From Obrimoposthia wandeli (Eukaryota): a DNA stretch of 64,000 bases. Below the pieces are notes generated by a model, which was not told where the DNA came from, ran no database searches, and saw nothing but the letters and a program-made list of their open reading frames with translations. The position numbers and the translations under genes are program-made. Positions 17,001-46,874 of the stretch are shown one piece after another (within the stretch, counting starts at the first letter, position 1; each line of letters opens with the position of its first letter). The DNA lies in the NCBI GenBank assembly GCA_977020255.1, contig CDROCS010004593.1:62001-126000 (forward strand). Reading direction: 5' to 3'.

Positions 17001-17020
17001 GGTCTGGCTCAGAAAGGTTA

Positions 17021-19514: not shown

Positions 19515-19750
19515 AACTTCATGTTATTCAAAGCTTACTGGTTAAAGAAATGTTTATTTATATAATTTGAGTATTAACTTTATTCGATTTTCACTATAAA
19601 TATTCGAAAATATCTTTAACACATTCAAAATAATCATAACTTCATGTTATTCAAAGCTTACTGGTTAAAGAAATGTTTATTTATATAATTTGAGTATTAA
19701 CTTTATTCGATTTACACTATAAATATTCGAAAATATCTTTAACACATTAA
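19515..19750. repeat. ~123-bp tandem duplication inside left arm (mirrored at ~25810-26045)
   Basis: aacttcatgttattcaaagcttactgg starts at 19515 and 19638. Confidence 0.85.
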
Positions 19751-20019
19751 AAAAAAAAAAAAAAATAACTTCAATTTTTTTTAAATTTGTATCGAATATT
19801 GAAAATTCATTTGAAAACACATGTTAATCAAAGCTACTGAAAGCCTTGTCTATAAATTCGAATATCAAATCTTTAATAATATTGTTTTTTATGTAAATAA
19901 ATCAAATTATGTATATATTCGATTATCAACTTAGTATTTATATTTATTATTCGACTTTCTAAAATAATTAAAATGTCTTGTAAAAACACATAAAATTAAT
20001 TATCGATTGTATGAATTAG

Positions 20020-20960
20020 TACAAGTATGAATGCAAATATGAAGGCAAATACTAGTAAGAGCCTTAGCAAGTGAATGTAATTGAAAAAATAAGAGTGTCG
20101 AGAGTTTGATTGAATGCAAGTGTAATTTAGACTATAAGTAAATTAAAATAGAGTTTTCGTTGAATAAATTATAGTTAGATTGAATGCAAGTATGAATGTA
20201 AGTGAATGCTAGTATGAATTTCAATACAAGTAAGTGTCAAGTGCAAGTGAATGTAATTTAAAAATAAGAGTGTCAATAGTTTGATTGAATTCGAGTGTAA
20301 GTTAGACTATAAGTAAATTAAAATAGAGTTTTCGTTGAATAAATTATAGTTAGATTGAATGTAAATGAATGCAAGTATGAATTCAAGTGAATGCAAATAC
20401 AAGCAAGAGTCTTAGCAAGTGAATGTAATTGAAAAAATAAAAATAAGAGTGTCGATAGTTTGATTGAATGCGAGTGTAATTTAGACTATAAGTAAATTAA
20501 AATAGAGTTTTCGTATGAATAAAGTTATGTTAAGTTACAGTAAATTAATAACAAGTAAGCAACTATAAGAAGCAGTGATATTGAAGTATGTAAAAAATTA
20601 GAACGACTAAGTTATGGCAAGATTAATAGAAAACAACACTAAGTTTGACAGTATGAATGAAAATTAGTAAAATATTAATGTATTTGAATGTATTTGAATG
20701 ATAGTTTGAATAAATTACAGTTAGATTGAATGTAAATGAATGCAAGTATGATTGAATGCAGGGTCAAGTACAAGTAAGAAAGAATACGCAATATGCAAGT
20801 ACAAATGTAAATTATGAATGAAAATTAGTAAATATATTAATGAATTTGAATGCTAGTTTAAATATATGAGAGTTAGAATGAATGTAAGTGAATGCAAGTA
20901 TGAATGTAAGTGAATGCAAATATGAATGCAAATACAAGTAAGAATCTTTGCAAGTGAATC
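20020..20960. repeat. Nested minisatellite (gaatgcaagt/gaatgtaagt micro-units within ~180-bp blocks), mirrored at ~24590-25540
   Basis: Repeated gaatgcaagtatgaatg and ttagactataagtaaattaaaatagagttttcg blocks; strongly purine-biased strand. Confidence 0.8.
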
Positions 20961-21599
20961 TTAAACTGCAAGTGAGTACTAGCTAATTATTAAATTAATA
21001 CTATCAATCAATGAAGATGATGTAACAACCTGATGAAGTTATAATAATTAAGATGCGAACTTTCATATTTTCACATAGTTTACCTCCATGTTAAAGTTAA
21101 TCTTTCATACATATTCATGCAATTAAATAATTAAAATGTCTTATCTCGTTTGATAAAATTTCTTAATTGAAATATTTTAAAATAATTAGTTTAATTTAAA
21201 TTCTTTATTTTTAAATAACTTGATTATACAATTATATTCGTAAATATAATTGAAATTATCATTATTCGTTTCTCTTTTTAACTATTCGAAAATATATTTA
21301 AATACAAATTTAGTAAATTAACTCAACAAACAATTTTATTTTTTAATTACTTGATATTTTTGCCATTGTCCGTTTAATATAATATGAATATTCAATTTAT
21401 TTCTTCAAAAATTCATTTTTATATGTTAAATAATATTCTTTATCACATTATTGTGATTTTTATCAAGTGATTTTAACATTAAACTATAAAAATATTTTAA
21501 TTATAAAGTTAGTAGCTGTACCGCGCGTACTGCATATAATATAAATTTCAAATATAAAGTATTATTAAATGTATTCTTTCAAATAGTAAAAGTTCTTTA

Positions 21600-23500
21600 G
21601 ATTTATTTAGTTTTGTTTACTAGACATTCGAAAATTGACTTGTAAACTAAATATATTTTCGCATATATTCACTTTAATATGCTGTAAGTTATTACTTTAA
21701 TATAATTTACAACCTAAACTTCAAGTAATTTACTTAATAATCATAATATTAATGATTTGTACGATAAATTGACTTGTAAACATAAAATATTTACAACAAA
21801 CCTCAAGTAGTTTACTTATTAATGATAATTTAAGGATTTGTACAATAAATTGACTTGTAAACATAATTTATTTTGCATATTCATTTAATATATTGTAAGT
21901 TAATACTGTAATATTTCATTACATAAAAAGTAATTCATAGTTTACTGTCGTTTACAATAAATTGACTTGTAAACATAATTTATTTTGCATATATTTAGTT
22001 TAATACGTTGTAAATTATTACTGTAATATTCCATTACATAAAAAGTAATTGATATTTTACTGTCGTTTACTATAAATTTACTTGTAAACATAATATATTT
22101 ATACATATATTAACTTTAATATGTTGTAACTTATTACTTTAATATAATTTTCAACAAAAACTTCAAGTAGTTTACTTATTAATCATAAGTTTAATGTTTT
22201 GTCAATAAATTGACTTGTAAACATAATATATTTATGCACATATTCACTTTAATATGTTGTAAGTTATTACTTTAATATAATTTTCAACAAAACCTTCAAG
22301 TAGTTTACTTATTAATCATAAGTTTAATGTTTTGTACCATAAACTGACTTGTAAACATAATTTATTTTGGTATATATATTCAGTTTAATATGTTGTAAGT
22401 TATTACTTTAATATTCCATTACATAAAAATTAATTGATATTTTACTGTCGTTTACTATAAATTTACTTGTAAACATAATATATTTATGCATATATTAACT
22501 TTAATATGTTGTAACTTATTACTTTAATATAATTTTCAACAAAAACTTCAAGTAGTTTACTTATTAATCATAAGTTTAATGTTTTGTCAATAAATTGACT
22601 TGTAAACATAATATATTTATGTACATATTCACTTTAATATGTTGTAAGTTATTACTTTAATATAATTTTCAACAAAACCTTCAAGTAGTTTACTTATTAA
22701 TCATAAGTTTAATGTTTTGTACCATAAACTGACTTGTAAACATAATTTATTTTGGTATATATATTCAGTTTAATATGTTGTAAGTTATTACTTTAATATT
22801 CCATTACATAAAAATTAATTGATATTTTACTGTCGTTTACTATAAATTTACTTGTAAACATAATTTATTTTGGCATATTTTCAATTTAATATGTTGTAAG
22901 TTATTACTTTAATATAATTTACAACAAAAACTTCAAGTAATTTACTTGTAAACTACAATATTTATTTGTTGTTGCATATATACAGTTTAAAATGTTGTAA
23001 GTTATTACTGTAATATAATTTACAACAAAAACTTCAAGTAGTTTACTTATTAATCATAAGTTTAATGTTTTGTCAATAAATTGACTTGTAAACCTAATTT
23101 ATTTTTGCATATTTTCAATTTAATATGTGTAAGTTATTACTGTAAAATAATTTACAACAAACATCTTCAAGAACTTTACTTAATAATCATAATTTTAATG
23201 ATTTGATCAATAAATTAACTTGTAAACATAATTTATTTTGTATATATTCATTTAATATATTGTAAGTTAATACTGTAATATTTCATTACATAAAAAAGTA
23301 ATTCATAGTTTACTTTCGTTTACAATAAATTGACTTGTAAACATAATTTATTTTGGCATATTTTCAATTTAATATGTGTAAGTTATTACTTTAATATAAT
23401 TTACAACAAAAACTTCAAGTAATTTACTTGTAAACTACAATATTTTTTTGTTGTTGTTGTTGTTGTTGCATAAGTACAGTTTAAAATGTTGTAAGTTATA
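21600..23500. repeat. Central spacer array of ~85-135-bp subunits with a ~385-bp higher-order repeat
   Basis: Recurrent aaattgacttgtaaacataat and aagttattactttaatat; block at 22081 recurs at 22466. Not part of the inverted arms. Confidence 0.8.
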
Positions 23501-23965
23501 AGAATTTGTGTACTTGTATTCAATGATTAACTTTTATTAAACTTTTATATAACATTTAATGTTTAAAATACTTGAGCAAAGTAAATTAATATCATAAAAG
23601 GATATTAAAATGTATTTTAGTTTAAGATAAAAAATGAGGTTATACGAAGTTAATCTAGTTTAAAACAATTAATATCAAAATTACTTACCAGAATGTCTAA
23701 ACAACAGTAAACTATTATAACCTACAATAAAGAAACTATTGAATTATAATATAACCAATCGTATTCAGTAAGTGATAAATGTACAAATCATTAAAATTAT
23801 GATTAATAGGTAAACTATTCGAAATGTTGTAAAATCAAGAAATAAGTTAAAAATATTCATAGTTGAACAACTCATAACTGAAATTTACATTAGTTTAGTA
23901 TTGTATTATATCAAACATATACCTATACGTTTTAAATAAAGTTACTTTAAAAAAAAAAAAAAAAA

Positions 23966-26900
23966 TTACTATTTGAAAGAATACATTTAATAATACTTTA
24001 TATTTGAAATTTATATTATATGCAGTACGCGCGGTACAGCTACTAACTTTATTATTAAAATATTTTTATAGTTTAATGTTAAAATCACTTGATAAAAATC
24101 ACAATAATGTGATAAAGAATATTATTTAACATATAAAAATGAATTTTTGAAGAAATAAATTGAATATTCATATTATATTAAACGGACAATGGCAAAAATA
24201 TCAAGTAATTAAAAAATAAAATTGTTTGTTGAGTTAATTTACTAAATTTGTATTTAAATATATTTTCGAATAGTTAAAAAGAGAAACGAATAATGATAAT
24301 TTCAATTATATTTACGAATATAATTGTATAATCAAGTTATTTAAAAATAAAGAATTTAAATTAAACTAATTATTTTAAAATATTTCAATTAAGAAATTTT
24401 ATCAAACGAGATAAGACATTTTAATTATTTAATTGCATGAATATGTATGAAAGATTAACTTTAACATGGAGGTAAACTATGTGAAAATATGAAAGTTCGC
24501 ATCTTAATTATTATAACTTCATCAGGTTGTTACATCATCTTCATTGATTGATAGTATTAATTTAATAATTAGCTAGTACTCACTTGCAGTTTAAGATTCA
24601 CTTGCAAAGATTCTTACTTGTATTTGCATTCATATTTGCATTCACTTACATTCATACTTGCATTCACTTACATTCATTCTAACTCTCATATATTTAAACT
24701 AGCATTCAAATTCATTAATATATTTACTAATTTTCATTCATAATTTACATTTGTACTTGCATATTGCGTATTCTTTCTTACTTGTACTTGACCCTGCATT
24801 CAATCATACTTGCATTCATTTACATTCAATCTAACTGTAATTTATTCAAACTATCATTCAAATACATTCAAATACATTAATATTTTACTAATTTTCATTC
24901 ATACTGTCAAACTTAGTGTTGTTTTCTATTAATCTTGCCATAACTTAGTCGTTCTAATTTTTAACATACTTCAATATCACTGCTTCTTATAGTTGCTTAC
25001 TTGTTATTAATTTACTGTAACTTAACATAACTTTATTCATACGAAAACTCTATTTTAATTTACTTATAGTCTAAATTACACTCGCATTCAATCAAACTAT
25101 CGACACTCTTATTTTTATTTTTTCAATTACATTCACTTGCTAAGACTCTTGCTTGTATTTGCATTCACTTGAATTCATACTTGCATTCATTTACATTCAA
25201 TCTAACTATAATTTATTCAACGAAAACTCTATTTTAATTTACTTATAGTCTAACTTACACTCGAATTCAATCAAACTATTGACACTCTTATTTTTAAATT
25301 ACATTCACTTGCACTTGACACTTACTTGTATTGAAATTCATACTAGCATTCACTTACATTCATACTTGCATTCAATCTAACTATAATTTATTCAACGAAA
25401 ACTCTATTTTAATTTACTTATAGTCTAAATTACACTTGCATTCAATCAAACTCTCGACACTCTTATTTTTTCAATTACATTCACTTGCTAAGGCTCTTAC
25501 TAGTATTTGCCTTCATATTTACATTCATACTTGTACTAATTCATACAATCGATAATTAATTTTATGTGTTTTTACAAGACATTTTAATTATTTTAGAAAG
25601 TCGAATAATAAATATAAATACTAAGTTGATAATCGAATATATACATAATTTGATTTATTTACATAAAAAACAATATTATTAAAGATTTGATATTCGAATT
25701 TATAGACAAGGCTTTCAGTAGCTTTGATTAACATGTGTTTTCAAATGAATTTTCAATATTCGATACAAATTTTAAAAAAAAAATTGAAGTTATTTTTTTT
25801 TTTTTTTTAATGTGTTAAAGATATTTTCGAATATTTATAGTGTAAATCGAATAAAGTTAATACTCAAATTATATAAATAAACATTTCTTTAACCAGTAAG
25901 CTTTGAATAACATGAAGTTATGATTATTTTGAATGTGTTAAAGATATTTTCGAATATTTATAGTGAAAATCGAATAAAGTTAATACTCAAATTATATAAA
26001 TAAACATTTCTTTAACCAGTAAGCTTTGAATAACATGAAGTTAATTTTATCAGTTTAAATAAAAATCAATTAAGGAATGTTATACGGATGTTTTAATTAT
26101 TTATGTGAGTGTTAATTGATCATTATAACATGTGAAAGTTATGTGAGAGAAAACACATACATGAAAATTTACATATTAATTAATATAATGTAAACATATT
26201 ATTAATGTTATTCATTGGTTGCTAGTATTAATTTGAAAATTACAAATTATTTTAGGAATAAATTACAATCATAAAATAATGCAATTTTAAAATTAATAAA
26301 TATTTAAGATATTTAACTTATAGTTATAATAATTAGGTTTGTATATACATTTGTTTAAATACATCAAAAGGGATAATATAAAAATGGCGGTAATTTAAAA
26401 AAGATGTTAGAATTTATCATTTTACAGACTTTTATCAAAATTTAACTTGAACTTGAAGTATTATTTTTAAATAAATTATTTATATTTTAAAAATATCAAA
26501 TAGTACTTGTAAATTTGTTTATTTTAATAAATTAGTTATAATTAATATGAATTGTTTTACGTTTGAAACTATTTTCGTCATTGTTTAAATACATTAATTG
26601 TAAACAATAAAAAAAACGCGCAATTTTTAAATTTTAATGTAATAAATTTGTTATTTTTTCTAAAGTTACAGTAAGATTATAGAATAATGCTATTAGGCTG
26701 ACGGACATACATCAATGGATTCAATGAATAACTTGTGGTAAGATGAATTTTTATCAAATTATTAATTATTTTATAATTAACATTATGTTTAAAATCAAAT
26801 TTGTTTAATTAAATCAAAGAAACGATAAAAAATTTGGCACAAATTTAAATTTTAAAATATTTTTATTTTAGAAAATTACAAGTATTTTTCTCCAAGACCC

Positions 26901-28828
26901 TTATGACATGAAATTTAAGTTATTTAAAAAAAATTTTACCATAATTCTTTAGATGCCTAAGCCTGGGAAAAACTTTGTACTAAATTTTCACATAGAATAG
27001 TGTGTGTATTATTACGTAATACATTCCTTAACTGATAAGAGTGAACTTTCACATACCGTAATTGATTGATAAATGTGTTGGTACTTTAATATTTAAAAAC
27101 TTGTTAAATTAAAATTTGTTTAACTTTATTAATATCTAACAAATTAAATTGGCGCAAATTTAAATTATTATTATTTTCAAGAAAAATAAAATTACAAGTA
27201 ATTTTTCCGCAAAGAATTGTTTAATTACATTAATAAAATGGATAAAAATTTGCATAAATTTAAATATTTATCAAATTATAATAATAATAATACTATTAGT
27301 AAAGTAATTTGAGTTTATTAACTTTTTCCTTAATATTTATTTTAAATAATGTTACTTTAATATCTTAAAAACTTGTTAAATTAAAAATTTGTTTATCTTT
27401 ACCAAAATCTAACAAAATAATTTGGCACAAATTTAAATTTAAAAATATTTTTATTTTAGAAAATTACAAGTATTTTTATTTATTTATTTATTTATTTATT
27501 TTTATTTATTTTTTTTTTTTTTCACAAGGACCTCTTAAAGTATGCATGACCTTAAGGGTATCTTTGAAGTCAATTTTCATATGCAAATACAACCATGTAA
27601 TAAAATTATCATGTTTGTTCCAAATCTGACCCTTAACTTGTGAACGACCATAAAAAATTTTACATGATTAAACTCGTAATATGTTGACGAATACAACCAT
27701 GTACTTGAAACTATGAAATTCCAACTTTTCTTTAACCCTTCATCTATGGACGACCATACATATATGGATGAATTCGTCTTCTAAAGATGATTCCAACCAT
27801 GTATTCAAACTTTGACATTTAAAACTTGATTTGGTCTATATCCCGAACCCTTCATATATGACCGACCATACTTTATGACTGAATTTGTCTTCTAAAGATG
27901 ATTCCAACCATGTACTAAAAACCTTGATATTTTAAACTTGACTTTGTTTTTTTTTTTAGCCCGACCCTTTCACCTATGGACGACCACAACCCTTTAGATG
28001 TGATGGCCAACCATAGTTGACCTTAATTATACCTTCAAAGTTTCAAGTCAAAACTGACCTTGACCCTTTGATTTATGGACGTCCATGACCCTTTAGATGT
28101 GATGGCCAACCATAGTTGACCTTAATTATACCTTCAAAGTTTCAAGTCAAAACTGACCTTGACTCTTTGATTTATGGACGTCCATGACCCTTTAGATGTG
28201 ACGGCCAACCATAGTTGACCTTAATTATACCTTCAAAGTTTCAAGTCAAAACTGACCTTGACCCTTTGAATTATGGACGTCCATGACCCTTTAGATGTGA
28301 TGGCCAACCATAGTTGACCTTAATTATACCTTCAAAGTTTCAAGTCAAAACTGAGTCCGACCCTTTGACCTATGGACGACCACAACCCCTTGGATATGTT
28401 GGCCGACCATAGACGGTCACGACCATACCTTCAAACCTTCAAGTCAAAACTGACCCCGACCCTTTGATCAATGGACGACCACAACCCCTTGGGTATGTTG
28501 GCCGACCATAGACGGTCACGACCATACCTTCAAACCTTCAAGTCAAAACTGACCCCGACCCTTTGACCTATGGACGACCACAACCCCTTGGGTATGTTGG
28601 CCGACCATAGACCGTCACGACCATACCTTCAAACCTTCATAACCTTTCTGAGCCAGACCCTTATGGTGTGGCAAGACACCCCTATGGTGAGGCAACATAT
28701 ACCCTTATGGTGTGACACGCTATGGTGTGACATTTCTATGGTGTGACACCCTTATGGTGTGACACCCTTTAACTTGGTGTGCGCACACAAGGGGGGGGGA
28801 CCCCCCCCCCAGTGGTCTAGACTCTACT
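23966..28828 (-). repeat. Right inverted arm (~4.86 kb)
   Basis: Mirror of the left arm with one extra 99-bp unit, a 12-bp deletion 4 nt from the terminus (GGTACTTTGATG absent) and homopolymer length differences. Confidence 0.95.
27950..28640. repeat. Mirror 99-bp tandem array, 7 units (4 type B + 3 type A)
   Basis: ccttcaaagtttca near 28032, 28131, 28230, 28329; ccttcaaaccttca near 28428, 28527, 28626. Confidence 0.9.
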
Positions 28829-30749
28829 TTGGACCAGGTTTCTTTTACATAATTTTTATTTGATACTGAAAAATATTCCTTACTGCATAATTAGACCAAC
28901 CAGATAATATGTAAATCCAATTTTTTTTTTAAATTAGATCTTTGAATGCATACTATATTACTTTGTATTACCTATTATAATTGTAAAATCTTAATAATTA
29001 AATTTACTTGTAATAAAATATAAAGGGTATGGTAAAACTTTTGGCCATTAAAATTTTGAAATATTTACAAAATATATATAATTTAAACAAAATAAATTTT
29101 ATTTATTAAGTAAAATGTTAAATACTTTAACTATTGCAATAATATTTTGTAAAATATTATAATAAAAAAACTACTTTTAATATTATTTGAATGAGTGATT
29201 AAAAATTTTGCCTCGAAGGATAGTTTATATTTATCCTTTATCTTCCATATTCGTTTCATGCTTCCATCATGTTTTGTCTAGTACCCTTGAATCATGATGA
29301 AGATGTTCCATTTTTCAGTTTTCACGTCATTGCCAACTTTCAAATAATCCACAAAAATACTTTCATCAGATCGAATCAATATTGAATTATTATGAATCCT
29401 ATATCCAATGTATATATGATGAAAGATATCATTCAGTTGTTTGATATCTTGTTCATGTATATCTTTGATGATGTAATCAAACTTGATTTTATTCAATTTT
29501 ACATTATTAGTAAAGAGATATGTGATAGGACTCTTGAATAAATACATATCCCATGTGAAATATTGATAACGAGATTGAAATTGAGGCTTCTTTATTTTAT
29601 TGATATGCCTTTCATTGATATCAGAGATATCTTCAATTAGAAGTTAAAGAAAATTCTTAGACTCATTCTTGCTTTTTTCTTTAATGAAATTGTGTTAGCA
29701 AATGATTTGATCTTCTTCATCTTCCTCTGGTGTATTCCTTGGCGTCAACTTCTCGATTTTTTTTGTCAGCATTGTTAGCAGTAATAATAACTGGAATGAA
29801 TAGTTAGTTGTTTTTACTCTACCCAACCTCACCTGATTGGTTAATGATTTAGATTGGTTGTTTACTTTAGTTGTATTTTGGACCAAATTTAATTTTAAAT
29901 CCCATATCACGAAAAGATGTCAAATTATTTAAAAATACTTATTGAACATAATAAAAATTAATTAAATTAAAAAACTGAGTATCAAATTGAAAATAACATT
30001 TTAAATATATTTGTTTAAATTTTTTTTTCTCATTTGTGGCTCATATATATGGCTCATTAATGAAGGTCTTGAATTTATCTAAAATTTTTTAAAATCTCTA
30101 TATTTATTTTTATCAATAAAAATATTGATTATAATAAAACAGCTACGCATAGAAACGGGAAAATTATTACACGAATCATTGGTTTAAAGGGAATAATAGA
30201 TTAAACTATATAATTAATTTTATAATCAAATGTTCAGTATATATTCAAAACAACGAAAGAAAGGCTTTAAATATTTTACAGGATTACGATAATACAATGA
30301 AATCAATAAAATAATAAAAGTCCATGAAGTTTATGGACAAATAAAATAAAATTGTATTTTAAAAAATTTAATGCATAAGAATCATATCAAAGATGAAGAG
30401 TGCTATAGAAGACAAATCAAAAGTGATAAAGGTTTTGTTTCAAATAAATTAGATAAAATAATAAAAACCTTTTAAAATTCTAAGAAAATCAAGTCTAAAT
30501 AACCACATGTATGGTGTTTATAAAGATACATCCAATAATAAATCATTATGTGTGTATGATGGGAGTTTTAGTTGTCAAAACCTAAAATCTTCTACAACAA
30601 CTTCACATTTCCAGAATATATTTGGCTTCTCCTCAAATCATACAAAGAATAACAAAATAATTAGAAGCCATCATAATCAGGAATTTTAAAAACTAAAAGA
30701 CGTTTAAGAGAAAGTTATATTACAAAATTGAAGATATTTTTATCAATTA

Positions 30750-31200
30750 AAATGTTAAGTTTTCACTTCATCGGAAAAAAAGAAAATAATATATTAAGGT
30801 AAAGCTGAAGAAATATTAGTGGTATGTGTACAATGTGACGAAATAAGCATAGGAATATCAATAGATGTTCATTTTCTTGAAGAAGGAAAAGCCAACACTA
30901 TTTCAAAATCTATCATGGAAACAATAATCACGCTTAATATCTCAAACTATATTAAAATGATAATATATGATACTTGCAATATTAACACAGATATTAAAAA
31001 TGAGCTATGCAAACGAATAAGCAAAATACTTATTTTGGATAGATTATTAAAATTATATATGAATCTAAAATTAGAAGGAACTTCTACATCACCATATATT
31101 AACTAAGATTTTACTAGTGAATTAACGTCGGATTATGAGAAACTGATTAAAAATTATAACAGTATTGATAATATATCTTAAAACTGACACGAATGGATAT
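30750..31200 (+). pseudogene. Degenerate hAT-like transposase fragment
   Basis: HFLEEGKANTISKSIMETI...MIIYDTCNINTDIKNE...LEGTSTSPYIN resembles the DTxNxNTG catalytic-region pattern of invertebrate hAT-like transposases; many stops around it. Confidence 0.45.
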
Positions 31201-31485
31201 AGGATAATTATAAGGAACTTGGAGCTTTGAGTATTTATTACACTTATAAGAGAAAATACATGAAACGTATAATGTAATTTCTGAAGATAAGAAGTAGTTA
31301 TGAAGCAAAATGGAATTTAAAAGCGATTTTAGCTTTAAAGCCGTCTTTACTTGGACTCTGTATGAATTATTGCATTAATTATATTATAAATATATTTTTA
31401 ATTTTTTAATACAAGGGTCAATAATAAATTATTTGAATAAGAGGCTCTCATTAGACAATAAAAGAGGGTTAGTAAGATGTTTGTG

Positions 31486-31527: not shown

Positions 31528-33345
31528 ATGCCATTCTACAACAACGTTGACCTAGACGAAGAGACGGAGGTTCAACTCTATGGGGATCTCTCTCCAGTGC
31601 AGCAGCAAACGCCACCACTGTCATAATACATTGACTTAGATAGTCAAGAGTCATCGGTGGTGAGCGAAGGAGAAGCAGCAGCAAGAGCGAACCTGTTACA
31701 AGAAGAAGCCTCATTGGCCAGCTCAACTCCAAGAGAAGAACCAATGGACGTGAGAGGTGGGGTACAGAGATCCCAATATATCGATCTGACTAGTCAGGAT
31801 TCGATAGAGAATTGGGAAGACTGTACTCCCAGACAAAACACAAAACCCAATCGTCCGGCAACTTCATTAGTAGCAGCAGGGAGATCCAATCTCTTCGACA
31901 ATTTTGAGGCGGCAATCAAATGCCCCTGGAAATTGATCCCGCTGTCTCAGCCGGAGAAAGTCCTCGCACCAGACTCAGACGAGGAGCTGTTCACCGATGA
32001 TGTACCTTCGGATTGGGAGGAGGACTTGACTCCATTCATCGACGAATGGATACAGCCAAGTATCGGAGCCCCAGGAGCCAACGAGTCAATGGTAGCAGAA
32101 TAGGACGAGGACGAGTGGCACCTGTTCACCGACGATTGGGATGGTCTCACTCCCTCTGCTACTCCGAAAGCAGATAATACAATGCCTGAACCATTCAAAG
32201 GGTCGAAATCTCCTGTTAGGAGAATAAAAGCAACGAATGAGGTTAGACATCATTTATTTTAAATGTTTTTTAATTTCATTTTCAGAAACTTCAACTGGAT
32301 TTGGCACCGTCAGTGACCATGACGGAGAGGCTAATTGAACCGCAATACTTAGCGAGTCAATGCAGCCAGGAGCTGCCAAGGAGTCAGCTCCGATACCTAG
32401 CGTCTCCAGATAATTTTAAGGTAAATTATTTAGATATTAAATTTAATAATTCATATAGATGGAGAACATTCGCGAAGAGGCAACGTCTATTCAACCGGTG
32501 GATAGGAAGAAAGCAGCAGTTAAGAAACCGAAACGCCATCGGGTCAAAACCCTCACGCGGAAGAAGACCAAGTTGGTGAAACAGGCTAACCTGCCCATCA
32601 TTGAGGTAAATTATTTATATGTTTAAATTTTATTAATATTTTGCAGGAACCCGTCCAGATATTTGAGGAGACTTGGGGAGAAGTTACTCCTTTCTCGCGG
32701 AAACGGACGAAGAGGGCAGAGGTGAAGAAGACAAGACGCTCGAGAAAATGTAAAACCTCAATTGGTCATTATTCTGAGACGGTGATTGGTCAGCAGGAGA
32801 TTCTCCAATCTCCAGTGGACGACGGACCAATCCTATATGAGAGGATCCCAGTCTCGCCGATCGAGATAAGTCCGTCCTCAAGTCAACGACGCCTGCAGGA
32901 GACTGCTTCTTCTCGTCCAACAACCAGCCAGAACTTGAAGAGGGCCTGGGATGACGCTGGTTTGGATGAATTCCTGGCGGAACTGGATTCACCGGCAATG
33001 CTTCCAGATTCGCGTTGGCAACAGGATGCCGTCTCACGCCAGCTTCAGCTTGAGAAGGAGGAGAAACAGAAGAAAGCTCCGCGGAAGAGGAAGAGGACTT
33101 CTACGTCGGGACCATCAACATCGGCTGCACCTCCTCCCAAAACGTTGCGGCAACTATTTCCAAAACCTGAGGGAAGGACAATTGCTACAAAGCAACCGGT
33201 GAAGCCGAAAAAGAAACCGGGCCGACCAAAGAAGAAGGAACCAGTACCGCTTTCTCCTATAATACTTAGTCGGAGGGATTACGACCCGAATGATCCCAAT
33301 GATGACTTCGTAAAGATGTTTAAAAATATAATTTATAAACATTAG
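31528..33345 (+). pseudogene. Four-exon gene for a ~565-aa disordered protein with SIM-like, acidic-aromatic and AT-hook-like motifs; two in-frame stops
   Basis: Exons 31528-32241, 32286-32420, 32459-32605, 32647-33345 join in frame through three phase-0 GT-AG AT-rich introns (44, 38, 41 nt). Stops at 31624 and 32101. Confidence 0.75.
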
Positions 33346-33539: not shown

Positions 33540-33860
33540 ATGGAATTCATTAAAATGAAGAGTCTGGTGACGAAGATTGAAGCAAACATCAGAATAAATG
33601 AGAAGAAAGGGGACTTAAAAAAGAGGGTCCTCAATCAAAATTTGTATACTGCTGTCGCGACAGAGTGGAATCATCGGGTGGAGATACAGGATAGGAGGCT
33701 AGCAGAACGCCGTCGATTCGTGGAGTGGAATAAGAATATCGAATTGGAAAAAAGGAAGGTGGATGAAAAAAGAAGAGAAGAGATGGAGGATGTTCGGCGA
33801 GCAGCAAGAAAGAGAATCCTCCAGATTAAACCGGAAGAGGGTCCTTCTACAAAAAAATAA
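33540..33860 (+). CDS. 106-aa charged, coiled-coil-like hypothetical protein
   Basis: Intact ATG-to-stop ORF with coding-like composition in AT-rich flanks; E/K/R-rich C-terminal half. Confidence 0.65.
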   Translation: MEFIKMKSLVTKIEANIRINEKKGDLKKRVLNQNLYTAVATEWNHRVEIQDRRLAERRRFVEWNKNIELEKRKVDEKRREEMEDVRRAARKRILQIKPEEGPSTKK

Positions 33861-33982
33861 ATTTTTGATTATTATTTTGTCTTTTTTGATTATGTTACAT
33901 AGGAGAATTGACAAAATATTCCAATCTTAACATGAAAGTACTTCGTTATAAACAACGGGATTTGCTACAAATTTAGATAATT

Positions 33983-34183
33983 ATGCAGGAATATATCATA
34001 GATTTTGAGGCTTTCATTAACAAAAATGGGGATTATATTATAAAATAATTATGTATTATGGATGTATGCGACTTTTTTCATCCTTTGCATTTCATATTTC
34101 AAATAGATATCCCATTTAAAAGTTTAGATTATAAGAAAAAATTTACTAATTTATATCTAACTAAATATTTCTCAATTTTTTAA
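33983..34183 (+). pseudogene. DnaQ/DEDD-like exonuclease-fold ORF remnant
   Basis: MQEYIIDFEAFINKNGDYIIK*LCIMDV..HPLHFIF: ExoI-like IDFE motif followed by IKEL-like strand (stop at 34046 where E is expected). Downstream part frameshifted. Confidence 0.5.
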
Positions 34184-34366
34184 TCCAATAGGAAAAGAGC
34201 ATGTGTGCATAAATTTTAGTATATAAGCAAACACTTTCTTCATTTAAATCCCCGACAATTTGAAATAATGCCTATGGTAAGAATGTATTTTTATTATTTC
34301 CTTATTAATATTTATTATTTCAGATTACTTGTAACCTATTCCCTGCGTATTGTGGTGCTTCGTACA

Positions 34367-35621
34367 ATGTCTGCATACTACCGGACAAAGTCTCGCGGGC
34401 TTCACTTCTTTGTCTGCCCCTTCGGCAGAACAATGGAGGAGAAGGAGTTTCGAGACTTCTTCAGTGAACATCGAGCTCATCTATCGTGTTTCACGGCCAA
34501 CAAGAAGAGGGATATCATGCAATTGGTGCGCGATTCACAGGTCGCTCCACATCCAATTCCAGTTGCAGTCGATCAACCCTTTTACGGTCCTGCGATTGGT
34601 CTCCCGGCTCCTGATTCTGACCCATCCACTCAAATGTCTAACAATGAGTGGATGAATGACATATCCCAGTCAGATTTTGAGATAGAGCAGTGGAGCGATA
34701 ACTCGTGGTTGGAGACCATTGAGGAATCCGATTTCATCGAGATGTCGGACGACAGCTGGATGGATTTCGTCAATGAAGAGGACTTCATTCCAGCTCAACT
34801 TGGATTGCCTTCATTAGGTATTTTTTATTATTATTTTTAAATCATATATTTTATTTTTTAATATATATATTTTATTTATATTTTTTATTCAGGAAATACC
34901 GTTCTACAATCGTCATCTGCTACAACAGATATGCCTCCACCATCGCGAGTGCCTACATTGATGTTAGCACGCCTTAGAGGTAATAACTTTTAAAAATATA
35001 TTTATTTTTTAATATATTTCAGCAGCACTAACCTCTACAACAACCGCTTCTTCATCGGCAAGGTCAGCGGTCCCTTCAACATCAGCTACAGTTGCCTCAA
35101 CATCGGCAGCATCAACAATAGCAGCAGCTTCCACATCAGCTTCAATTGTCTCAACATCGACAGCATGTCCAATAGCAGCACCTTCAACCTCAGCTGCAAT
35201 TGTCTCAACTATTAATATAAATAGTTGTCTTCCCATTCAATTAGGGGGAGGTTTGTCAGCGACAAACGGAAGAAAGAGGCGAGGCCAATTTTTTAATAAG
35301 GTCCCACCCAAAAAACGTAGAGAAAACGGTGCTACTATAGAGTATCACCTAAATAATAAATATGTTATAGTTAAGGTGCCATTAGGAAATGAAATTTTAT
35401 TAAACGTAGGTGTAGATTCAAATATTGAAAATCTTTTAAAATCAGAGGTGACTAAATTAGGACAGGCTAAGGTTCAATTTTGCGCAACAGTGCAGTTTAA
35501 AAATGTCAATGAGGAAACTAAAACTGGGGTAATTTCACATAAAGCAACTGTTTTTTATGATAATTTTGTAACTGAAATTGGAAGAAACCTTGATGAAAAA
35601 TTGCTAATTATAGCGAGTTAA
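34367..35621 (+). CDS. Spliced N-terminal extension of the pPolB reading frame (acidic Trp repeats, Ser/Thr/Ala linker, QLGGG, basic motif)
   Basis: Exons 34367-34817, 34893-34979, 35023-35621 join in frame through phase-1 GT-AG introns of 75 and 43 nt and run without a stop into track ORF 35253. Confidence 0.7.
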
Positions 35622-38610
35622 GTAGTGGATGGACTCTAGTTAGAATTCACGATGTTAGCTTTGTTCTAACAAAGTTCACTGACATGATATATCTTTCGGG
35701 GAGTTCATACATTCCTTCGCCTAGATCTCTTCAACTTTCACGTTCCATTGTTAACGTACAAAACAGTGATAACCTTTGCTTTCTGTATAGCGTGTTGGCC
35801 ATCCTCAAAGGGATGTAATTACTGAGCATAGAGAGCGTGTCAGTAAATATACCCTTTTTTAAATGAATTGCAGTATCATGGAATAGATTTTCCTGTTAAA
35901 TTAACTGCGATATCAAGATTTGAACATCTTAATAACTTGAGTATTAATGTATTCAAATATAATACTGATATCCCAGTTAATGTAACAGATGAAGAAATTT
36001 TTAAAAATCCTTTTGTAGATGTAATTTATAGGAGCAAAAATGAGGGGACTCAGGTCAACTTAATTTTGCTCGAACATAATAAAAAATTCCATTATGCTGC
36101 AATTCCCAATTTAGATCGTCTTCTAAATTTAGATAATGGAGCCTTACCGGTTAGGATAAGGTGTAAGTGGTGTCATAGATGTTTGCATGGGTTCCGATCC
36201 GAGCTCTCTTACAGCAAACATCTGACATTATGTTCACTGAATCCTGATGACAATACACTATATAGCATGCCTAAGGATAAGGATTTAAAATTCAGGGATT
36301 GAGCAAAATGCATACCCATGGAATTCAGGGTGTATGCAGATTTTGAGTCAATTTTAGCATTGCACGACCAGTATGAGAGTATTCACCTACCGGCTTCGGC
36401 AGGACTACTATTCTTAGGCCCCAATATTACCCAGTATCATAAATTTTCCGGTCCAAATTGTATTTTAGATTTTATGTTAAAATTAGAGGAATTAGGAACA
36501 ACAATTGTCAAACCGTGGTATCATCTCAATGCTCATCAAGCAATGATCATGCAGGCATAGACTGGGTTAATTTTAATTCTTGTAGATTATGTTATTTGTG
36601 TGGAACCCAGTCTAAGTTAGTCAGAGATCACGATCATGTTACGGGCCGATACTTGGGAGCGGCGTGCAACCTTTGTAACCTTGGCCGTCGTCTCCCTAAA
36701 AAACCACGCATTCCCATCGTGTTTCATAACCTCAAAGGATATGATTTGCATCATATACTTAAATACGCGTTGGGTACATTAAGCTCTTGGGAAATTTCAT
36801 GTATACCTCAAACTTCAGAGAAATATTTATCTTTAACTGCATATACTGAATTCTGCAGTTTAAGATTCATAGATTCTCTGCAGTTTTTGAGCGGGTCTTT
36901 AAAAAATTTAACGGCATCTTTAAATGCATGGCCAATTACACAGTCAGTGTTCCCAGCTTCGGTTAACGATAAGGGGATTTTTCCGTATAAATTTGCGAAA
37001 ACTTTCGCAGATTTAGAAAATACAACTGAAATCCCACCCATAACTGAATTTGAGGGTGTAAGTCTTCAAGACTATAATGAGACCCGTACATTTTGGGTGA
37101 ATAATTGTCAAAATCTTCTCGAATATATGCTTTATTATATGAAGTTAGACATTTATCTTTTAACTGATGTGTTTGAGTCCTTTAGTGTAAAGTCTTTAGC
37201 AGAAGATGGGCTAGATCCCATGCATTTCTTTAGTTTACCTGGTCTTTCATGGGCAACAGCAATAAAAACTCTTAAAATTAATATCGAGTTACTGCAAGAT
37301 CCCGCGATGTATCAAATGTATGATTATGGTATACGCGGTGGAATGACTTTTGTCAACAAACATCATGTTGTCAAAAATCAATCCACGGAGATTCTGTACA
37401 TCGATATTAATAATTTGTATGGGTGGGCGCTTACTCAACCTCTACCTCATGCCAACTTTAAGTCGGTTTATGATGTGGATCAGTTGAATAAGTTGATGAC
37501 AGATTTGGCTACTGTTGATACAGTTTCATCCGACGTCGGCTATTTGGTTGAGGTGGACATAAAAATCCCTCCCAATGTGCATGATAAATTAGATGATCTT
37601 CCAGTAGCGCCTGTTCATCAATGCCCACCTAATTCAAAGGTTAAGAAATTATTGTTAACCCATGAAGACAAGTTGAATTATGTTGTGCATTGGCGGCTTC
37701 TTCAATTCTACTTAAAGTTGGGAGCAAAAGTTACTCGAATTCATCGTGCTATAAGCTTCAGTCAAAACTTTGTGTTTAAAGACTATATTGAGAAGAATTC
37801 AAGAAAACGTAATTTGGCCACTAGCAAATTCGATCGAGATTTTTACAAGTTAAAAAGTAATAGTCTCTTTGGAAAAACTGTAGAGGACTTGCGGAAACGT
37901 ATTTGTCTACGGTTTAGCAATGATGAGCGTAAACTAATAACATATACTAGAAAGTACAACTTCAAGGGTAGTTTTACAATTGCAGATGACTTGGTAGCAG
38001 TGTTATTAGGAAAACAGAGTATTTGTCTCGATCGACCGAGTTATATAGGTCAAACGGTTTTAGACATTTCTAAACTCAGAATGTATGAGCTTCAATACAT
38101 AGAATTGGAGAAATACCGACAAGAATTTAATTGTGAGATTAAAATCGCAGCTGGGGACACTGACTCTTTCTTTTTAGAATGTAGGAATGTTAGTTTAAAT
38201 AATCAATTATTACCAGCAATGTTTAGGGACAACTTACTAGATACCCATAAATATCCCGCTAACCATCCTCTACACTCTATGAGTTTAAAGGACATTATCG
38301 GGAAATTTAAGGATGAAAGCGAGGGACAGGTTTTTCTATGATGATTGTATTTTCCTACGCCCTAAATGCTACAGTTTACATGCATCTAATAATACATGTT
38401 CAATGAGAGCAAAGGGTGTGTACACATGAGGCCTACCGGAAAGTTTATGATACTGGGTGTATTGAAAGCGTTGAGCAAACTAGATTTATTTCAAGAGCCC
38501 ATCAACTGTATTCCCATAAATCAACCAAAATCGCGTTGAGTAGTAATGACGACAAGCGCTTTTGGGTAGAAAAGAACGCTAGCCTGGCTTATGGACACTT
38601 CAGAATTTAA
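35253..38610 (+). pseudogene. polB: Protein-primed family B DNA polymerase (Polinton pPolB), disrupted
   Basis: N-terminal GSSYIPSP..IVNVQNSDNLCFLYSVLA and GIDFPV; ExoI RVYADFES; ExoII FHNLKGYD; motif A YIDINNLYG; motif B KLKSNSLFGK; motif C GDTDS; C-terminal ALSSNDDKR..LAYGH. At least six stops or frameshifts (~35620, 35810, 36300, 36560, 38340, 38420). Confidence 0.95.
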
Positions 38611-38883: not shown

Positions 38884-39264
38884 CTAATCGTTTTGCAACG
38901 ATAACCATAAAATACATAAATGTCCACAGTTTCTCGTCGCAGGATCCTGATATTGTATCTTGTTGTAAAATACTCTTCTTCGTCCTTTTTGAATAGTTGA
39001 AACAAGTTTGTGTGGATAATACATTGCAAGTGGATCAAATACATGTATTGTCCACTCTCTAACATAAATAGCTATCCAATGTTCTCCTGGTAAATTCAAA
39101 GTATGAGTATTGATAATGTAACCTCCAGATTGAAAAAATGGAATCATATCAATAGGATAAACTCCATTGAATTTATCACCCAGGACCTTCTCTGCTGATT
39201 CTTTTACTTGTTTTGAACTAAATAAAAATTAATAAATATAAATTTAAAATATGTCTTACTCCAT
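38884..39264 (-). CDS. Adenain-like (Ulp1/C5-type) cysteine maturation protease, two exons
   Basis: GEHWIAIY, VFDP and QYQDPATRNCGHLC give the His/Asp/Gln/Cys catalytic set. ATG 39264, a 42-nt GT-AG intron (39259-39218) and MDSKQVKE..FNGVYPIDMIP restore the N-terminus. Confidence 0.9.
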
Positions 39265-39265
39265 T

Positions 39266-40495
39266 CTATAATATGACAGTTCTGTTTTTATTGATTTGTA
39301 TTTCCGAATCAAATACTCCGTAAATAAGCACCGTAGTAGGATTTGTTAAAGCTGCATTGAACTTAATTTCTAGTCGTAAATTTCCATCCTTTGGTAGTTG
39401 GCATTGGTTTATATCAAAGTCTGGTGCCAAAACAAATGTGAAGAACGGGCAGCTGTTTTTAAAGTCAGTGAAAGAAATACCATTGTTTATATTTTTATCT
39501 AGTTGACCCAAATTTCGAATAATAGATTGGGTATAAGCAAAAGCATAAGCGTTACCTTCGAAATCTGTTTTATATGTTTCACGATAATCAGTATTTCTTG
39601 AAAGTGTCACCGAACCTACACTAAGATTGTCAAATTGAGTTGCATCTGTCGTATAATTTCCTAGAAACTTTGCAGTTTTTTGAAAAGAAATTAAAATGAA
39701 TTTCGGTAATCTTACATCACCAAAAATTTGATCTTTATTAAAAGCTTGTGTACCCGTACCTAAAGAATAAGATATAAGTTTAGTTTCTCTAATAGGATAA
39801 CAAGCATTGTTTTTTTCCATTCCTATATTATGTGCCATTAAAACTGATTGCTCGGTTTTAACTCTTCGAGCATACAATTTTGCATCCAAAATATCAAGTC
39901 TAGGTTTTAGAATGTCCGTGCTTATCAAAGAAAAATTCCATTTATTACGTTTCAAACGAAGATGTACATTAACACCGGGAATTAAATATTTCGGTTGTTC
40001 AAAGAAATTCAATCTCAAAGACCCACACATTTCGTAAGCTTTAGAACCTGCAATCCATTCTTTGCGAGTTGCATCAGTTTTATCATAACCAATGGTTGCC
40101 AAAATAGTATTTTGAGTATCAGTACTATAATTCAAAAGACTTTCAATCAAAGCTTTATGAGCATAGGAAGAATTTCCACCTTCAATTTTGACATTATTAA
40201 GAGTAACAATGGCATCATTAAATAAAGAATTAAATAGATAATTTACAGGTGTTACATCGGCATTTTCATCTAAATTAGTACCATCCCGATTTAATACTTT
40301 TATTTGAACATAAAGCAAAGTATCATTCAAATCTAAATACTTGCTATTGGAACCATTAATATTAAATTCTAAATCGGTTAAAGTGGTTCCTGAAACTGAG
40401 TTAACAAGGAATATTTCTTCAAAGGAAGCATTATCTACAACTACTTGTGGAAGCGGTTTATCAAAAATACATAATTCAGTTTTGGCGCAACTCAT
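39266..40495 (-). CDS. Major capsid protein (double jelly roll, Polinton PY/hexon-like), intact 409 aa
   Basis: N-terminus CAKTELCIFDKPLPQ, NYLFNSLF, YLIPGVNVHLRLKRN and C-terminal GNLRLEIKFNAAL match the Polinton capsid pattern; position between protease and PX-like gene. Confidence 0.9.
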   Translation of the reverse strand: MSCAKTELCIFDKPLPQVVVDNASFEEIFLVNSVSGTTLTDLEFNINGSNSKYLDLNDTLLYVQIKVLNRDGTNLDENADVTPVNYLFNSLFNDAIVTLNNVKIEGGNSSYAHKALIESLLNYSTDTQNTILATIGYDKTDATRKEWIAGSKAYEMCGSLRLNFFEQPKYLIPGVNVHLRLKRNKWNFSLISTDILKPRLDILDAKLYARRVKTEQSVLMAHNIGMEKNNACYPIRETKLISYSLGTGTQAFNKDQIFGDVRLPKFILISFQKTAKFLGNYTTDATQFDNLSVGSVTLSRNTDYRETYKTDFEGNAYAFAYTQSIIRNLGQLDKNINNGISFTDFKNSCPFFTFVLAPDFDINQCQLPKDGNLRLEIKFNAALTNPTTVLIYGVFDSEIQINKNRTVIL

Positions 40496-40869
40496 TTTGC
40501 AAATATTGTTCCTTCAACATTTTTACGTTTGTTTATATTAATTTTTAGCTTCTTTTTACTTTTAAATCCACTACCTCCTTGGCTTTTATTTGATTTACGT
40601 TTTCTAATCAAATTAGCAACTTCAGGTAAAACATTATCAAGTTCATCAAGTGCATGCTTCTTAAAAGTTGGTATTAGTTTATTGTCATTAGATGAAAGGT
40701 AATCCTTTCCTAATTTTGATATAAATCGCCCGAGTCTCTTTAAAAGAGGATAGGCAAATCTACCTAATGTTCTAAGCCAGCCAGATCCGTATTGTTTACC
40801 AATAAAATATGGTAATTCTCCACCGTGTTGGCTTTGACTATAAGCTTCAACTATTGCTGGATTCGCCCT
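40492..40869 (-). pseudogene. Polinton PX-like small basic core/virion protein; start codon apparently mutated (AGG)
   Basis: Open 125-codon frame missed by the track: ANPAIVEAYSQSQHGGELPYFIGKQYGSGWLRTLGRFAYPLLKRLGRFISKLGK...QGGSGFKSKKK. Its TGA overlaps the capsid ATG (ATGA). Confidence 0.7.
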
Positions 40870-41906: not shown

Positions 41907-42930
41907 ATTATATTAGATGCTGATATCCAAGTTGGATCTGAATAACCATGCCATTTAACATAGTATTGTTTATGTTTACCGACACCCTTAGATTTTAATA
42001 TTTTTTGAATACGGAAAACGCTAGGTTTATTTGATATTACTTGTAGTTCTTGCTCGTAAAATTTACCGTGAACGATATTATTGTCAGCATCTTTAATAGT
42101 ATACATTATTGGATTACTCTTTTGATCAATTTTACTTATACAAAATATTTCATCGCTCCAATTCTAATCAAAGTTTTTAATAAATGGAGTAGAGCTAATT
42201 TTCGAAATTCGAACAGATTCGTTTTTCTTATATTTAGCTCTTTTAATTTTTTCTTTTTTATTCCTGTTCATCCAAATGTCCATAGAGTTTTTATTAGTAA
42301 CATCAACAGGTCTCATTCCCTTGAGACCTCTATGTTCAGAGTGATTATATGCATGTATTATTTTAGGTAAAACTTGGATCCATTTTTTATTTCCTTCTTT
42401 TGTGAAATACTTTTTATTCGACCTCTTAGAGTACGATTAAATCTTTCTACTACTGCTGCTTTGTATTGTGAAAACACAGAGTAATGATTTATATTATTTT
42501 GTTTAAATAAGGATTGAACTTGCTTATTATAAAATTCATTCCCTAAATCAGTTTGTACATTTTGTGGAATGTCCTCTTTCAATATTTCTTTAATGGCTTC
42601 AAGCATAGCTATTGAAGACTTTGCTTTAACTGGAATTGCACGAGCAAACCTGCTAAATACATCAATACATGTTAAAATATATCGATATCCCTTATTAATG
42701 GAAGAATATGGGATCATCTCCATCAAATCCATTTGCAATAAATTATTAGAACCGCTGGTTTTGTAAGCTCTAGTTGGAAACCTTCTTCTCATCGGCTTGT
42801 TCAGACTGTAGGCTAACTGGTCGCTCAGCCATTTCTGCGTTTTCTTGTAATTTTGTTTTGTTCTTTTTGCTAATTTTGAAACTCCTGTGTAGCCAATTGG
42901 ATCTTTTGGATTGAACCATATCTTCTCCAT
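41903..42930 (-). pseudogene. Retroviral-like (rve) integrase with C-terminal chromodomain
   Basis: QMDL, IDVFSRFA, QTDLGNEF, VERFNRTL give D-D-E; after a frameshift (~42410) YNHSEHRGLKGMRP and FYEQELQ; chromodomain FRIQKILK..YYVKWHGY. One stop near 42160. Confidence 0.95.
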
Positions 42931-43016
42931 TACAACAATTTGAATAGAAAGAAAATTTAAGTTTAGGTAAAGAAGGGCTAGCACCCATATCTTTAGCTGA
43001 TTTTAGAAATAATTGT

Positions 43017-43520: not shown

Positions 43521-44168
43521 TTATTTTTTATAATTGTTCTCTATTTGTTTATAAACAGTTACTCCCTTAGAATTAAATATGTCTGTTAAAACACGTAAAT
43601 CATCTGGGCAAGCTTGTGTAAAGTCAATAAATATATACCCATGTGCTTGTTTAGCAGCATCGTGGAATGAATCAACTAGAAAGTTCTTATTTTGAGGAAA
43701 TGCCTGTCTGGCCACAAAATCAACAACTGTTTGATCTCTAGGATTTTTAAATAAAACTAAGTAATGTACATTAAGATTTCTTGTTCTATGGTGACCTCCT
43801 TGGTGAAACAGATTTTGAGTGATAAATATAACTGTAACTTCACGATGTCTTGCAATCTTTGTAAATAAATTATTAAAGTTCGATTCCTTGTTAGCTTCCT
43901 CATACAAATCATCAATTATTATTACATCTTCTTTTTTCAATCTTTCACACCAATTTGCATCAAATCCTTCAATAAATTTTATACCCTTCAACTTGCAAAC
44001 TTCTGTTTTGGTTAACCCGCTTTCCCCTCCTCCACCATGATGCCAATAAATATTTTTGAAACTAGATTTGAAAAGAGATTCATTTTGCAACAATTTACAG
44101 ACGAAATGTGTCTTTCCACTTCCACTTGGGCCAACTATTTGAAATACAGCATTATTATTTAGCTCCAT
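43521..44168 (-). CDS. A32/FtsK-like genome-packaging ATPase, intact 215 aa
   Basis: Walker A GPSGSGKT, Walker B IIIDD, RH motif (KIARHRE), FITQNLF, YLVLFKNPRD, GYIFIDF. Confidence 0.95.
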   Translation of the reverse strand: MELNNNAVFQIVGPSGSGKTHFVCKLLQNESLFKSSFKNIYWHHGGGGESGLTKTEVCKLKGIKFIEGFDANWCERLKKEDVIIIDDLYEEANKESNFNNLFTKIARHREVTVIFITQNLFHQGGHHRTRNLNVHYLVLFKNPRDQTVVDFVARQAFPQNKNFLVDSFHDAAKQAHGYIFIDFTQACPDDLRVLTDIFNSKGVTVYKQIENNYKK

Positions 44169-44205
44169 TGCTTATACTCTTTCATTTTTAATATTGTTTA
44201 TATTA

Positions 44206-44562: not shown

Positions 44563-45003
44563 TTAGACTGGATAATCAAAATTTTTCAGTCCCAATATCA
44601 TAACTTTACCACTGGAAAATATATTTACACATAGCGGTTTAAACTTCAAATAACTGAGAGCAGGAAAAATTTCTGGTTTAAACATGCATTCTTCTTTCAT
44701 TTTCTCTGCAGTTTTAAAAAGATTTATCTGTTTCCCGAGATTAGCCGAAATCGTGATTGATTGTATTGCAGTGATTTGAATACCAAATGGTAAATTGAAC
44801 CCAAGCATTGGTATTTTGCATCCCATAACACGACAATTTCCTAAAGAATTCAATATAAAAATAAAATAAAAAACTAACCTGTAGGAAAAATAACAACTGT
44901 GAAATTGTCAAACTTTCCTACATATTTTCTCGGCATCCATTCATTGAATGGTAAGTACGAAACATCATCTTCTACCTTTATAATTTATATTTACGAGTTT
45001 CAT
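44563..45003 (-). pseudogene. Compact TATA-binding-protein-like (two TBP repeats), 38-nt intron and one frameshift
   Basis: Repeat 2: IQSITISANLGKQINL..FKPEIFPALSY..VNIFSSGKVMILGLK (TBP: IQNIVGS..YEPELFPGLIY..LIFVSGKVVLTGAK). Repeat 1: MKLVNINYKG..TVVIFPTG/NCRVMGCK joined across GT-AG intron 44878-44841. Confidence 0.85.
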
Positions 45004-46599: not shown

Positions 46600-46603
46600 G
46601 TGT

Positions 46604-46737
46604 GAGAGCGAGACATCCTTACATCGCCAAGCTAGTCTGTGACCTATATGAGAGCGAGATATCCGTACATCGCCAAGCTAGTCTGTGACCTATATGAGAG
46701 CGAGATATCCGTACATCGCAGGACTAGTCTGTGACCA
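46604..46737. repeat. 46-bp tandem repeat, at least 3 units, abutting the gap
   Basis: gagagcgagatatccgtacatcgccaagctagtctgtgacctatat starts at 46604, 46650, 46696. Confidence 0.9.
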
Positions 46738-46760
46738 ATGTCGGTCCCGAGCCCTTCGCC

Positions 46761-46867
46761 CCCCCTTGTCTTTTAAAACCGTGCATGTGTGTGGAGTAAA
46801 ATTTCACTCCACACACCTACACGAAATTTCACTCCACACACATGCACGGATTTAAAGGACAAGGGGG
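46761..46867. repeat. Subterminal palindrome (~45-bp arms)
   Basis: cccccttgtcttttaaaaccgtgcatgtgtgtggagtaaaatttc pairs with gaaatttcactccacacacatgcacggatttaaaggacaaggggg with ~3 mismatches; 17-nt loop repeats part of the arm. Confidence 0.9.
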
Positions 46868-46874
46868 AGGGGGG

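Follow-up and report, generated by a model that had tools for sequence, protein, structure and literature searches.

A conserved, predicted-spliced first gene with SIM-like motifs in a high-copy Polinton family of Obrimoposthia wandeli: a candidate regulator

The stretch of DNA considered here (the window, 64,000 nucleotides of a contig of Obrimoposthia wandeli) carries an interrupted coding sequence at 31528-33345 which raises three questions: whether it is a real gene, to which element it belongs, and what its product might do. A sequence-only reading had described it as a spliced gene for a disordered regulatory protein that combines SIM-like (resembling SUMO-interacting motifs), acidic activator-like and AT-hook-like motifs. 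This observation is mostly confirmed by sequence comparison: the locus appears to hold a real, predicted-spliced orphan gene (Table 1).

Table 1. Positions in the window of the first gene, the motifs of its predicted product and the surrounding element
Feature	Position	Strand	Remarks
TATA-like box TATATAA	31486-31492	+	just 5' of the ATG; from sequence
Gene	31528-33345	+	four exons, 564 codons, three introns
Exon 1	31528-32241	+	714 nt, 238 codons; carries the three SIM-like cores and the acidic-aromatic patches
SIM-like 1, NVDLDEE	31543-31563	+	core identity 0.94 in the old lineage
SIM-like 2, YIDL.SQ	31627-31650	+	core identity 0.89 in the old lineage
SIM-like 3, YIDLTSQDS	31777-31803	+	core identity 0.82 in the old lineage, T not kept
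Acidic-aromatic region: ELFTDD, DLTPF, LFTDDWDGLTP	31984-32154	+	old-lineage identity 0.37, 0.72, 0.60
Intron 1	32242-32285	+	44 nt, GT..AG, phase 0; same position in the old lineage
Exon 2	32286-32420	+	135 nt, 45 codons; mean old-lineage identity 0.64, highest of the three exons scored
Intron 2	32421-32458	+	38 nt, GT..AG, phase 0
Exon 3	32459-32605	+	147 nt, 49 codons; basic; kin to the start of exon 4
Intron 3	32606-32646	+	41 nt, GT..AG, phase 0
Exon 4	32647-33345	+	699 nt, 232 codons and stop; basic tract
GLDEFLAEL	32959-32985	+	exon 4
RKRKR	33082-33096	+	exon 4
KKKPGRPKKK	33208-33237	+	exon 4
C-terminal DDFVKMFKNII	33301-33333	+	exon 4
Small charged ORF	33540-33860	+	106 aa; coiled-coil-like by eye; found 3' of the gene in each of the lineages examined
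Protein-primed family B DNA polymerase	34370-38341	+	PF03175, E=1.5e-30; broken by stops; two predicted short introns near the 5' end
Adenain-like protease	38884-39228	-	PF00770, E=0.039, weak and below cut-off; position and homologs fit
Double jelly-roll major capsid protein	39266-40513	-	model pLDDT 84; Foldseek matches to iridovirus and PBCV-1 capsids, E about 1e-16
rve integrase, frameshifted	42358-43002	-	PF00665, E=7e-11
A32-like packaging ATPase	43521-44171	-	PF04665, E=9e-7
TBP-like protein	44563-44907	-	PF00352, E=1.3e-11
Right terminal inverted repeat	46600-46905		ends near 46905

Judging from the sequence around it, the gene belongs to a high-copy Polinton/Maverick family, called family A here. 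The element shows the features by which Polintons are recognized, namely a protein-primed PolB, an rve integrase, a packaging ATPase, a double jelly-roll capsid and terminal inverted repeats. The left terminal repeat is missing from the window copy, in which homology to other copies begins near 31420; the stretch before this point (28830-31420) is not common to other copies and was rejected as a part of the element. A check for a 6-bp target site duplication was made on two copies, and in both the probe found one end only. Exact degenerate probes, which count probe matches and not whole elements, matched the genome 7,047 times with the codons of YIDLTSQD, 4,364 times with a probe for the next gene and 9,145 times with one for a capsid motif; the reversed controls gave 0. 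Family A is the commonest Polinton type in the capsid-probe sample, accounting for 80 of the first 100 matches. The closest named relatives of the host SUMO gene come from Macrostomum and Trichobilharzia, which makes a flatworm host likely; Maverick expansions in that group are mentioned in the accessible part of a planarian genome preprint (10.64898/2025.12.11.693146).

In 59 of 76 copies, a terminal-repeat probe (the reverse complement of the right repeat) matches at a distance of 249-1357 nt upstream of the gene. Frames of at least 100 aa lie between the repeat and the gene in 10 of 58 copies and were rejected as genes, as all six that were inspected read through CACAC repeats. Since the terminal repeat is just upstream and the inspected intervening frames consist of such repeats, the gene is the first gene of the element. 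The TATATAA box is present no more than 110 nt upstream of its start in 72 of 75 copies.

Two other Polinton families of this genome, B and C, share the core and the TBP-like gene with family A; in the copies sampled (for family B 19 upstream of the polymerase and three across both ends, for family C five) neither the first gene nor its downstream neighbor is found. The first gene thus counts as an accessory gene in family A, and its earlier placement outside the canonical Polinton core stands. As families B and C are also abundant, Polintons do not need the gene to spread here.

Several other features of the element and of its surroundings were observed. The 5' region of the polymerase gene (34268-35621, forward strand) has its own TATA-like box and predicted short introns at 34818-34892 and 34980-35022, with probably one more near 34277; it also contains an acidic-Trp repeat stretch and a Ser/Thr/Ala tract, neither of which is seen in the polymerases of families B and C, which occupy a single frame. 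TATA boxes thus stand 5' of at least two genes of an element which itself encodes a TBP-like ORF. That ORF has homologs in both families B and C, and also in 8 related loci from metagenomes, which makes it a clade-wide gene. A decayed ORF at 33980-34180 (forward strand) resembles by eye a family B ORF (L040:352-678) and is possibly a nuclease-like accessory gene. Elsewhere in the window there are a broken LTR-retrotransposon reverse transcriptase with RNase H (713-3577, forward strand), a 12-kb foldback-like element that has inverted repeats of several kb (96-100%) as well as tandem arrays in its interior (16836-28824), and a 42-bp tandem array in which both strands have long open frames (60394-61226). 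Tandem arrays of ubiquitin-like domains with a spacing of ~270 bp, distinct from polyubiquitin, occur in the genome (G000:C2592, C2050, C1456 and C4682).

The window copy is damaged by premature in-frame stops at 31624 and 32101, both in exon 1. The stop at 31624 is private to this copy (1 of 58 aligned exon 1 copies), and that at 32101 recurs in a single other copy, almost identical and located on the same contig (2 of 58). The 76 copies that span the gene fall into two main subfamilies about 20% apart, A1 (34 copies) and A2 (42 copies); as about 50 of the loci were top-scoring matches, the rest coming from a position-ordered list, this sample leans towards young copies. The intact copies whose recovery had been proposed earlier do exist, 9 of the 34 A1 and 4 of the 42 A2 copies having no break at all. 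Upstream of the gene (seen at loci L069 and L074), A2 copies contain a 137-bp tandem duplication with a CCAAT-like promoter element, and the terminal repeat of A1 copies includes 46-bp repeats as well as long CACAC arrays. Copies and fragments of family A are also nested in or beside other Polintons (L032, L182, L234, L236), and many are internally deleted.

The following observations support, at the level of evolution, the earlier claim of a spliced gene with three junctions. The splice sites are kept across copies: GT donors are found at 102/102 and AG acceptors at 100/102 positions in A1, and at 165/168 and 161/168, respectively, in A2. The introns are AT-rich (GC 0.11-0.18) and the exons have a GC content of about 0.49; when the element was scanned without bias for AT-rich GT..AG segments flanked by GC-richer sequence, all three introns were recovered, along with two others in the 5' region of the polymerase and a cluster near 46200; the same scan gave none in two family B copies. 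Between A1 and A2, 26 of the 27 internal exon indels are multiples of three (in four pairs that share most of these indels), and intron 1 differs in length by 1 nt. That the introns are chance GT-AG pairs inside one decayed ORF was rejected because the lengths of introns 1 and 2 are not divisible by three and the exon indels are in-frame. A host SUMO gene has GT-AG introns of 39 and 40 nt, so the tiny intron size is native to the host. In an old, degraded lineage of the family, intron 1 is at the same place with a length of 33-44 nt and AG in 10 of 11 loci, and GT follows the 135-nt exon 2 in 8 of 11. The transcript would thus be spliced at three host-sized introns. Four sequencing runs, all of one sample, cover the gene across its introns, and none of the 15 joints listed, out of 113, matches an intron; these runs have no bearing on expression.

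The coding sequence has evolved in frame by duplication of whole modules. A2 contains an additional 177-nt phase-0 exon which duplicates the beginning of the last one (z=26). The same module has an older relative in exon 3 (z=7-8 in A2, 2.9 in A1). In a third lineage, the last exon has in-frame duplications of 13-17 residues. Net dN/dS between A1 and A2 is 0.32 (0.23, 0.56, 0.30 and 0.38 for exons 1-4) on a measure whose neutral baseline is below 1, after two outlier copies had been removed, together with any exon that had a frameshift or more than two stops. With three duplicate copies also left out, private changes comprise 433 replacement and 187 silent ones, as against 51 and 38 fixed codons (p=0.02); amino-acid constraint in this comparison is seen for exon 1 (p=0.007), and exons 2-4 show none (p=0.51). 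Divergence increases from codon position 2 through 1 to 3 in all four exons, whether CpG columns are kept or dropped.

All the motifs named by the sequence-only reading are present in the predicted protein at the places it had given. They are independent of splicing, as the SIM-like and acidic motifs are all in exon 1 and both basic ones are in exon 4. In 3,000 local shuffles, YIDLT has P=0.002, and neither three [VI]DL[DT] cores nor two LFTDD were obtained once (0/3,000 each); basic-flanked GRP has P=0.026 and bare GRP P=0.11. These values overstate the independence of the motifs because the patterns were picked post hoc and the two YIDL cores form an internal repeat (z=6.2). One pattern for the SIM is [VILFY][VI]DLT, and the other motifs were likewise sought as regular expressions. 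The standard SIM patterns tried on the protein of the window copy match none of the SIM-like cores. The YIDL cores with their SQ(D/E)S nevertheless fit the general form of a SIM, a hydrophobic core of four residues with acidic or Ser residues after it, and YIDL fits a LIR pattern too. As defined in the accessible text of one source, the SIM is a loose motif, and many viral proteins have putative SIMs, several of which are linked to SUMO-dependent functions (PMC12751080). The earlier description of the protein as disordered is borne out by prediction, FoldIndex being negative in 433 of its 512 windows compared with 40 of 365 for the capsid. A single-sequence fold of exon 1 (pLDDT 49, pTM 0.13) fits disorder and is uninformative beyond that.

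Conservation separates the motifs from each other. Between A1 and A2, motif columns are kept no better than the rest (69/78 vs 405/486, p=0.32), and one DLTPF is deleted in A2, where it occurs in 1 of 31 copies. The old lineage, for which 20 loci were fetched, 12 with a match to exon 1 and 17 with one to exon 4, has a median identity of 41% over 23 long matches. There, with the masks fixed for the A1/A2 test, motif columns average 0.57 vs 0.47 for the others (random-block P=0.048; Mann-Whitney p=0.003 on columns that are not independent). All three cores (VDL, YIDL and YIDL), covered there by 6-7 degraded copies, rank among the 32 best of the 498 four-residue windows. DLTP (0.72), KKKPGRP (0.62), LFTD.WDGLT (0.60) and GLD.FL (0.57) are moderately kept, and RKRKR (0.33), ELFTDD (0.37) and EETWGEVTP (0.35) are not conserved. 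Three other segments are conserved as well as or better than the motifs: FKNII at the C-terminus, RRIKAT where exon 1 ends, and exon 2. For the SIM-like and acidic motifs, therefore, the cores and two acidic-aromatic patches persist at ~41% identity, but the motifs do not stand above the rest of the protein between A1 and A2. The small ORF downstream of the gene is 57-73% identical in most old-lineage matches and thus more conserved than the first gene; a Pfam search with it gave no match.

These features suggest, tentatively and at somewhat less than an even chance, that the product of the first gene is a nuclear motif hub which, by engaging SUMO and coactivators, would drive the element or lift its silencing. 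The disordered protein would act early, in the nucleus. Its three SIM-like cores might bind SUMOylated chromatin or silencing factors, the acidic-aromatic patches might recruit transcription coactivators, and the basic tracts might bring the protein to the nucleus and onto DNA. As a result, the genes of the element would be switched on or de-silenced. The reading as an early regulator is suited by the position of the gene, which is the first after the left terminal repeat and has its own TATA box. Adenovirus E1A is likewise a leftmost, spliced, disordered motif hub, and the IE2-type regulators of herpesviruses can also be compared. The likeness of the first gene to E1A and to ICP0/IE2 is one of analogy: there is no sequence similarity, and no RING, zinc finger or other folded domain was detected. 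ICP0 uses its SIMs against SUMO-dependent silencing, according to the part of the source available (PMC12751080).

It is also possible, although unlikely, that the gene is cargo of the kind found in nematode Mavericks, i.e. a eukaryotic gene captured beside the left repeat with a selfish or host-directed effect unrelated to transcription of the element. In the accessible text of Widen et al., a GC-rich, intron-bearing cargo region adjoins the left terminal repeat (bioRxiv 2022.07.12.499685). The first gene has the same position, host-sized introns and a GC content of 0.49, as opposed to 0.31-0.36 for the core genes. That cargo, however, consists of folded enzymes with host family members (wasp proteases, krma kinases), whereas the first gene encodes a disordered orphan and is kept in all sampled lineages of family A. 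No homolog outside this genome was found in searches of Pfam, PHROGs, ESM Atlas (best scores 0.77 and 0.75) and metagenome loci, by phmmer with exon 1 against 1.84 billion proteins, or by a word search for exon 4 among longer proteins. A capsid-based locus search gave nothing with a single protein and nothing in viral contigs, and 70 metagenome loci from a capsid alignment, most of them too short to reach the position of the gene, gave no match to it. The database searches thus found no cellular homolog; searches of the genome itself are saturated by thousands of copies, which could hide a host paralog. The GC3 of the gene (about 0.5) is unlike that of two of the three host genes measured (0.23, 0.23, 0.48). 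Finally, the 5' part of the polymerase shares the high GC, the acidic-Trp repeats and the short introns, which suggests a coherent left-end module of the element instead of a captured gene. No gene like the first gene of family A appears in the available text of a nematode Polinton preprint.

A DNA-bound structural or tethering protein, whose repeated basic exon module and KKKPGRP would cover the DNA of the element or anchor the integration complex in AT-rich chromatin, with the SIM-like cores serving to localize it, is likewise improbable. The C-terminal half of the protein is basic (three blocks with a net charge of +12, +11 and +7), its basic exon module is tandemly duplicated, and KKKPGRP is conserved at 0.62. 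AT-hook-like motifs aid the tethering of integrase to chromatin by LEDGF, and the central RGR of an AT-hook matters for minor-groove binding, as stated in the accessible text from which the AT-hook definitions are taken (PMC11354804). KKKPGRPKKK is found in 40 of 56 copies and has the AT-hook-like form of GRP flanked by K/R and P. The RGRP core, however, occurs in 0 of 56 aligned last exons, where the core is PGRP, and the protein has no Pfam match at E up to 10, so that a canonical AT-hook was rejected. Of the basic and AT-hook motifs proposed earlier, then, KKKPGRP is conserved, but the RGRP core is absent and RKRKR is not conserved (0.33). Against tethering there are also the strongly acidic N-terminal half (-10, -13) and families B and C, which have the same core genes without the first gene.

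Oncoid genes of adintoviruses are accessory ORFs upstream of PolB in an animal Polinton, recognizable, like the first gene, by short linear motifs only. In the text available they are defined by LxCxE, CR1 and CXXC (Starrett et al., PMC8502044; preprint 10.1101/697771), and the class by short motifs alone (Buck et al., PMC11071296). Oncoids have LxCxE/CK2, CR1 and paired CXXC, whereas the first gene has a SIM-like cluster, introns and an exon duplication; its position fits but the defining motifs are absent, and membership was rejected. An Oncoid- or E1A-like manipulator of the cell cycle, whose motifs would bind partners such as cyclins, pocket proteins or Atg8 rather than SUMO, is quite improbable: the gene lies upstream of PolB as Oncoid genes do (PMC8502044, accessible text), SP/TP sites are enriched (15 vs 7.7 expected, P=0.004) and one CDK-type SPVR site sits in a well-conserved block, but LxCxE, the CR1 pattern and CXXC have 0 matches each in the window copy, and its RxL and LIR counts are at chance level.

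A bolder form of the motif-hub reading would make the protein a poly-SIM anti-silencing factor of Polintons that counters SUMO-dependent silencing of transposons, similar to ICP0 without its catalytic domain, gained by family A, kept in at least four lineages and helping to explain the frequency of the family; its probability is low. In the literature searched, as far as its text was available, no paper describes a SIM-bearing Polinton gene, although the supplementary maps of Starrett et al. or Repbase could already name this ORF.

The element may also be compared with vertebrate Mavericks, which have the same core of pPolB, ATPase, integrase, protease and capsid, with accessory regions flanking it. 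Intact vertebrate Mavericks are reported, in the part of the source available, to be intronless (PMC8097293). Unlike them, the element described here has predicted introns in its first gene and in the 5' end of the polymerase, as well as a TBP-like gene; TBP-like genes of non-animal elements are named in figure legends (10.1101/697771).

Set against the report of intronless intact vertebrate elements, the first gene of family A is a Polinton accessory gene that evolves by in-frame exon duplication. No regulator by which Polintons switch on their genes or escape silencing was found described in the accessible text of the literature searched. A conserved, predicted-spliced, SIM-rich first gene offers a concrete and testable candidate for such a regulator.
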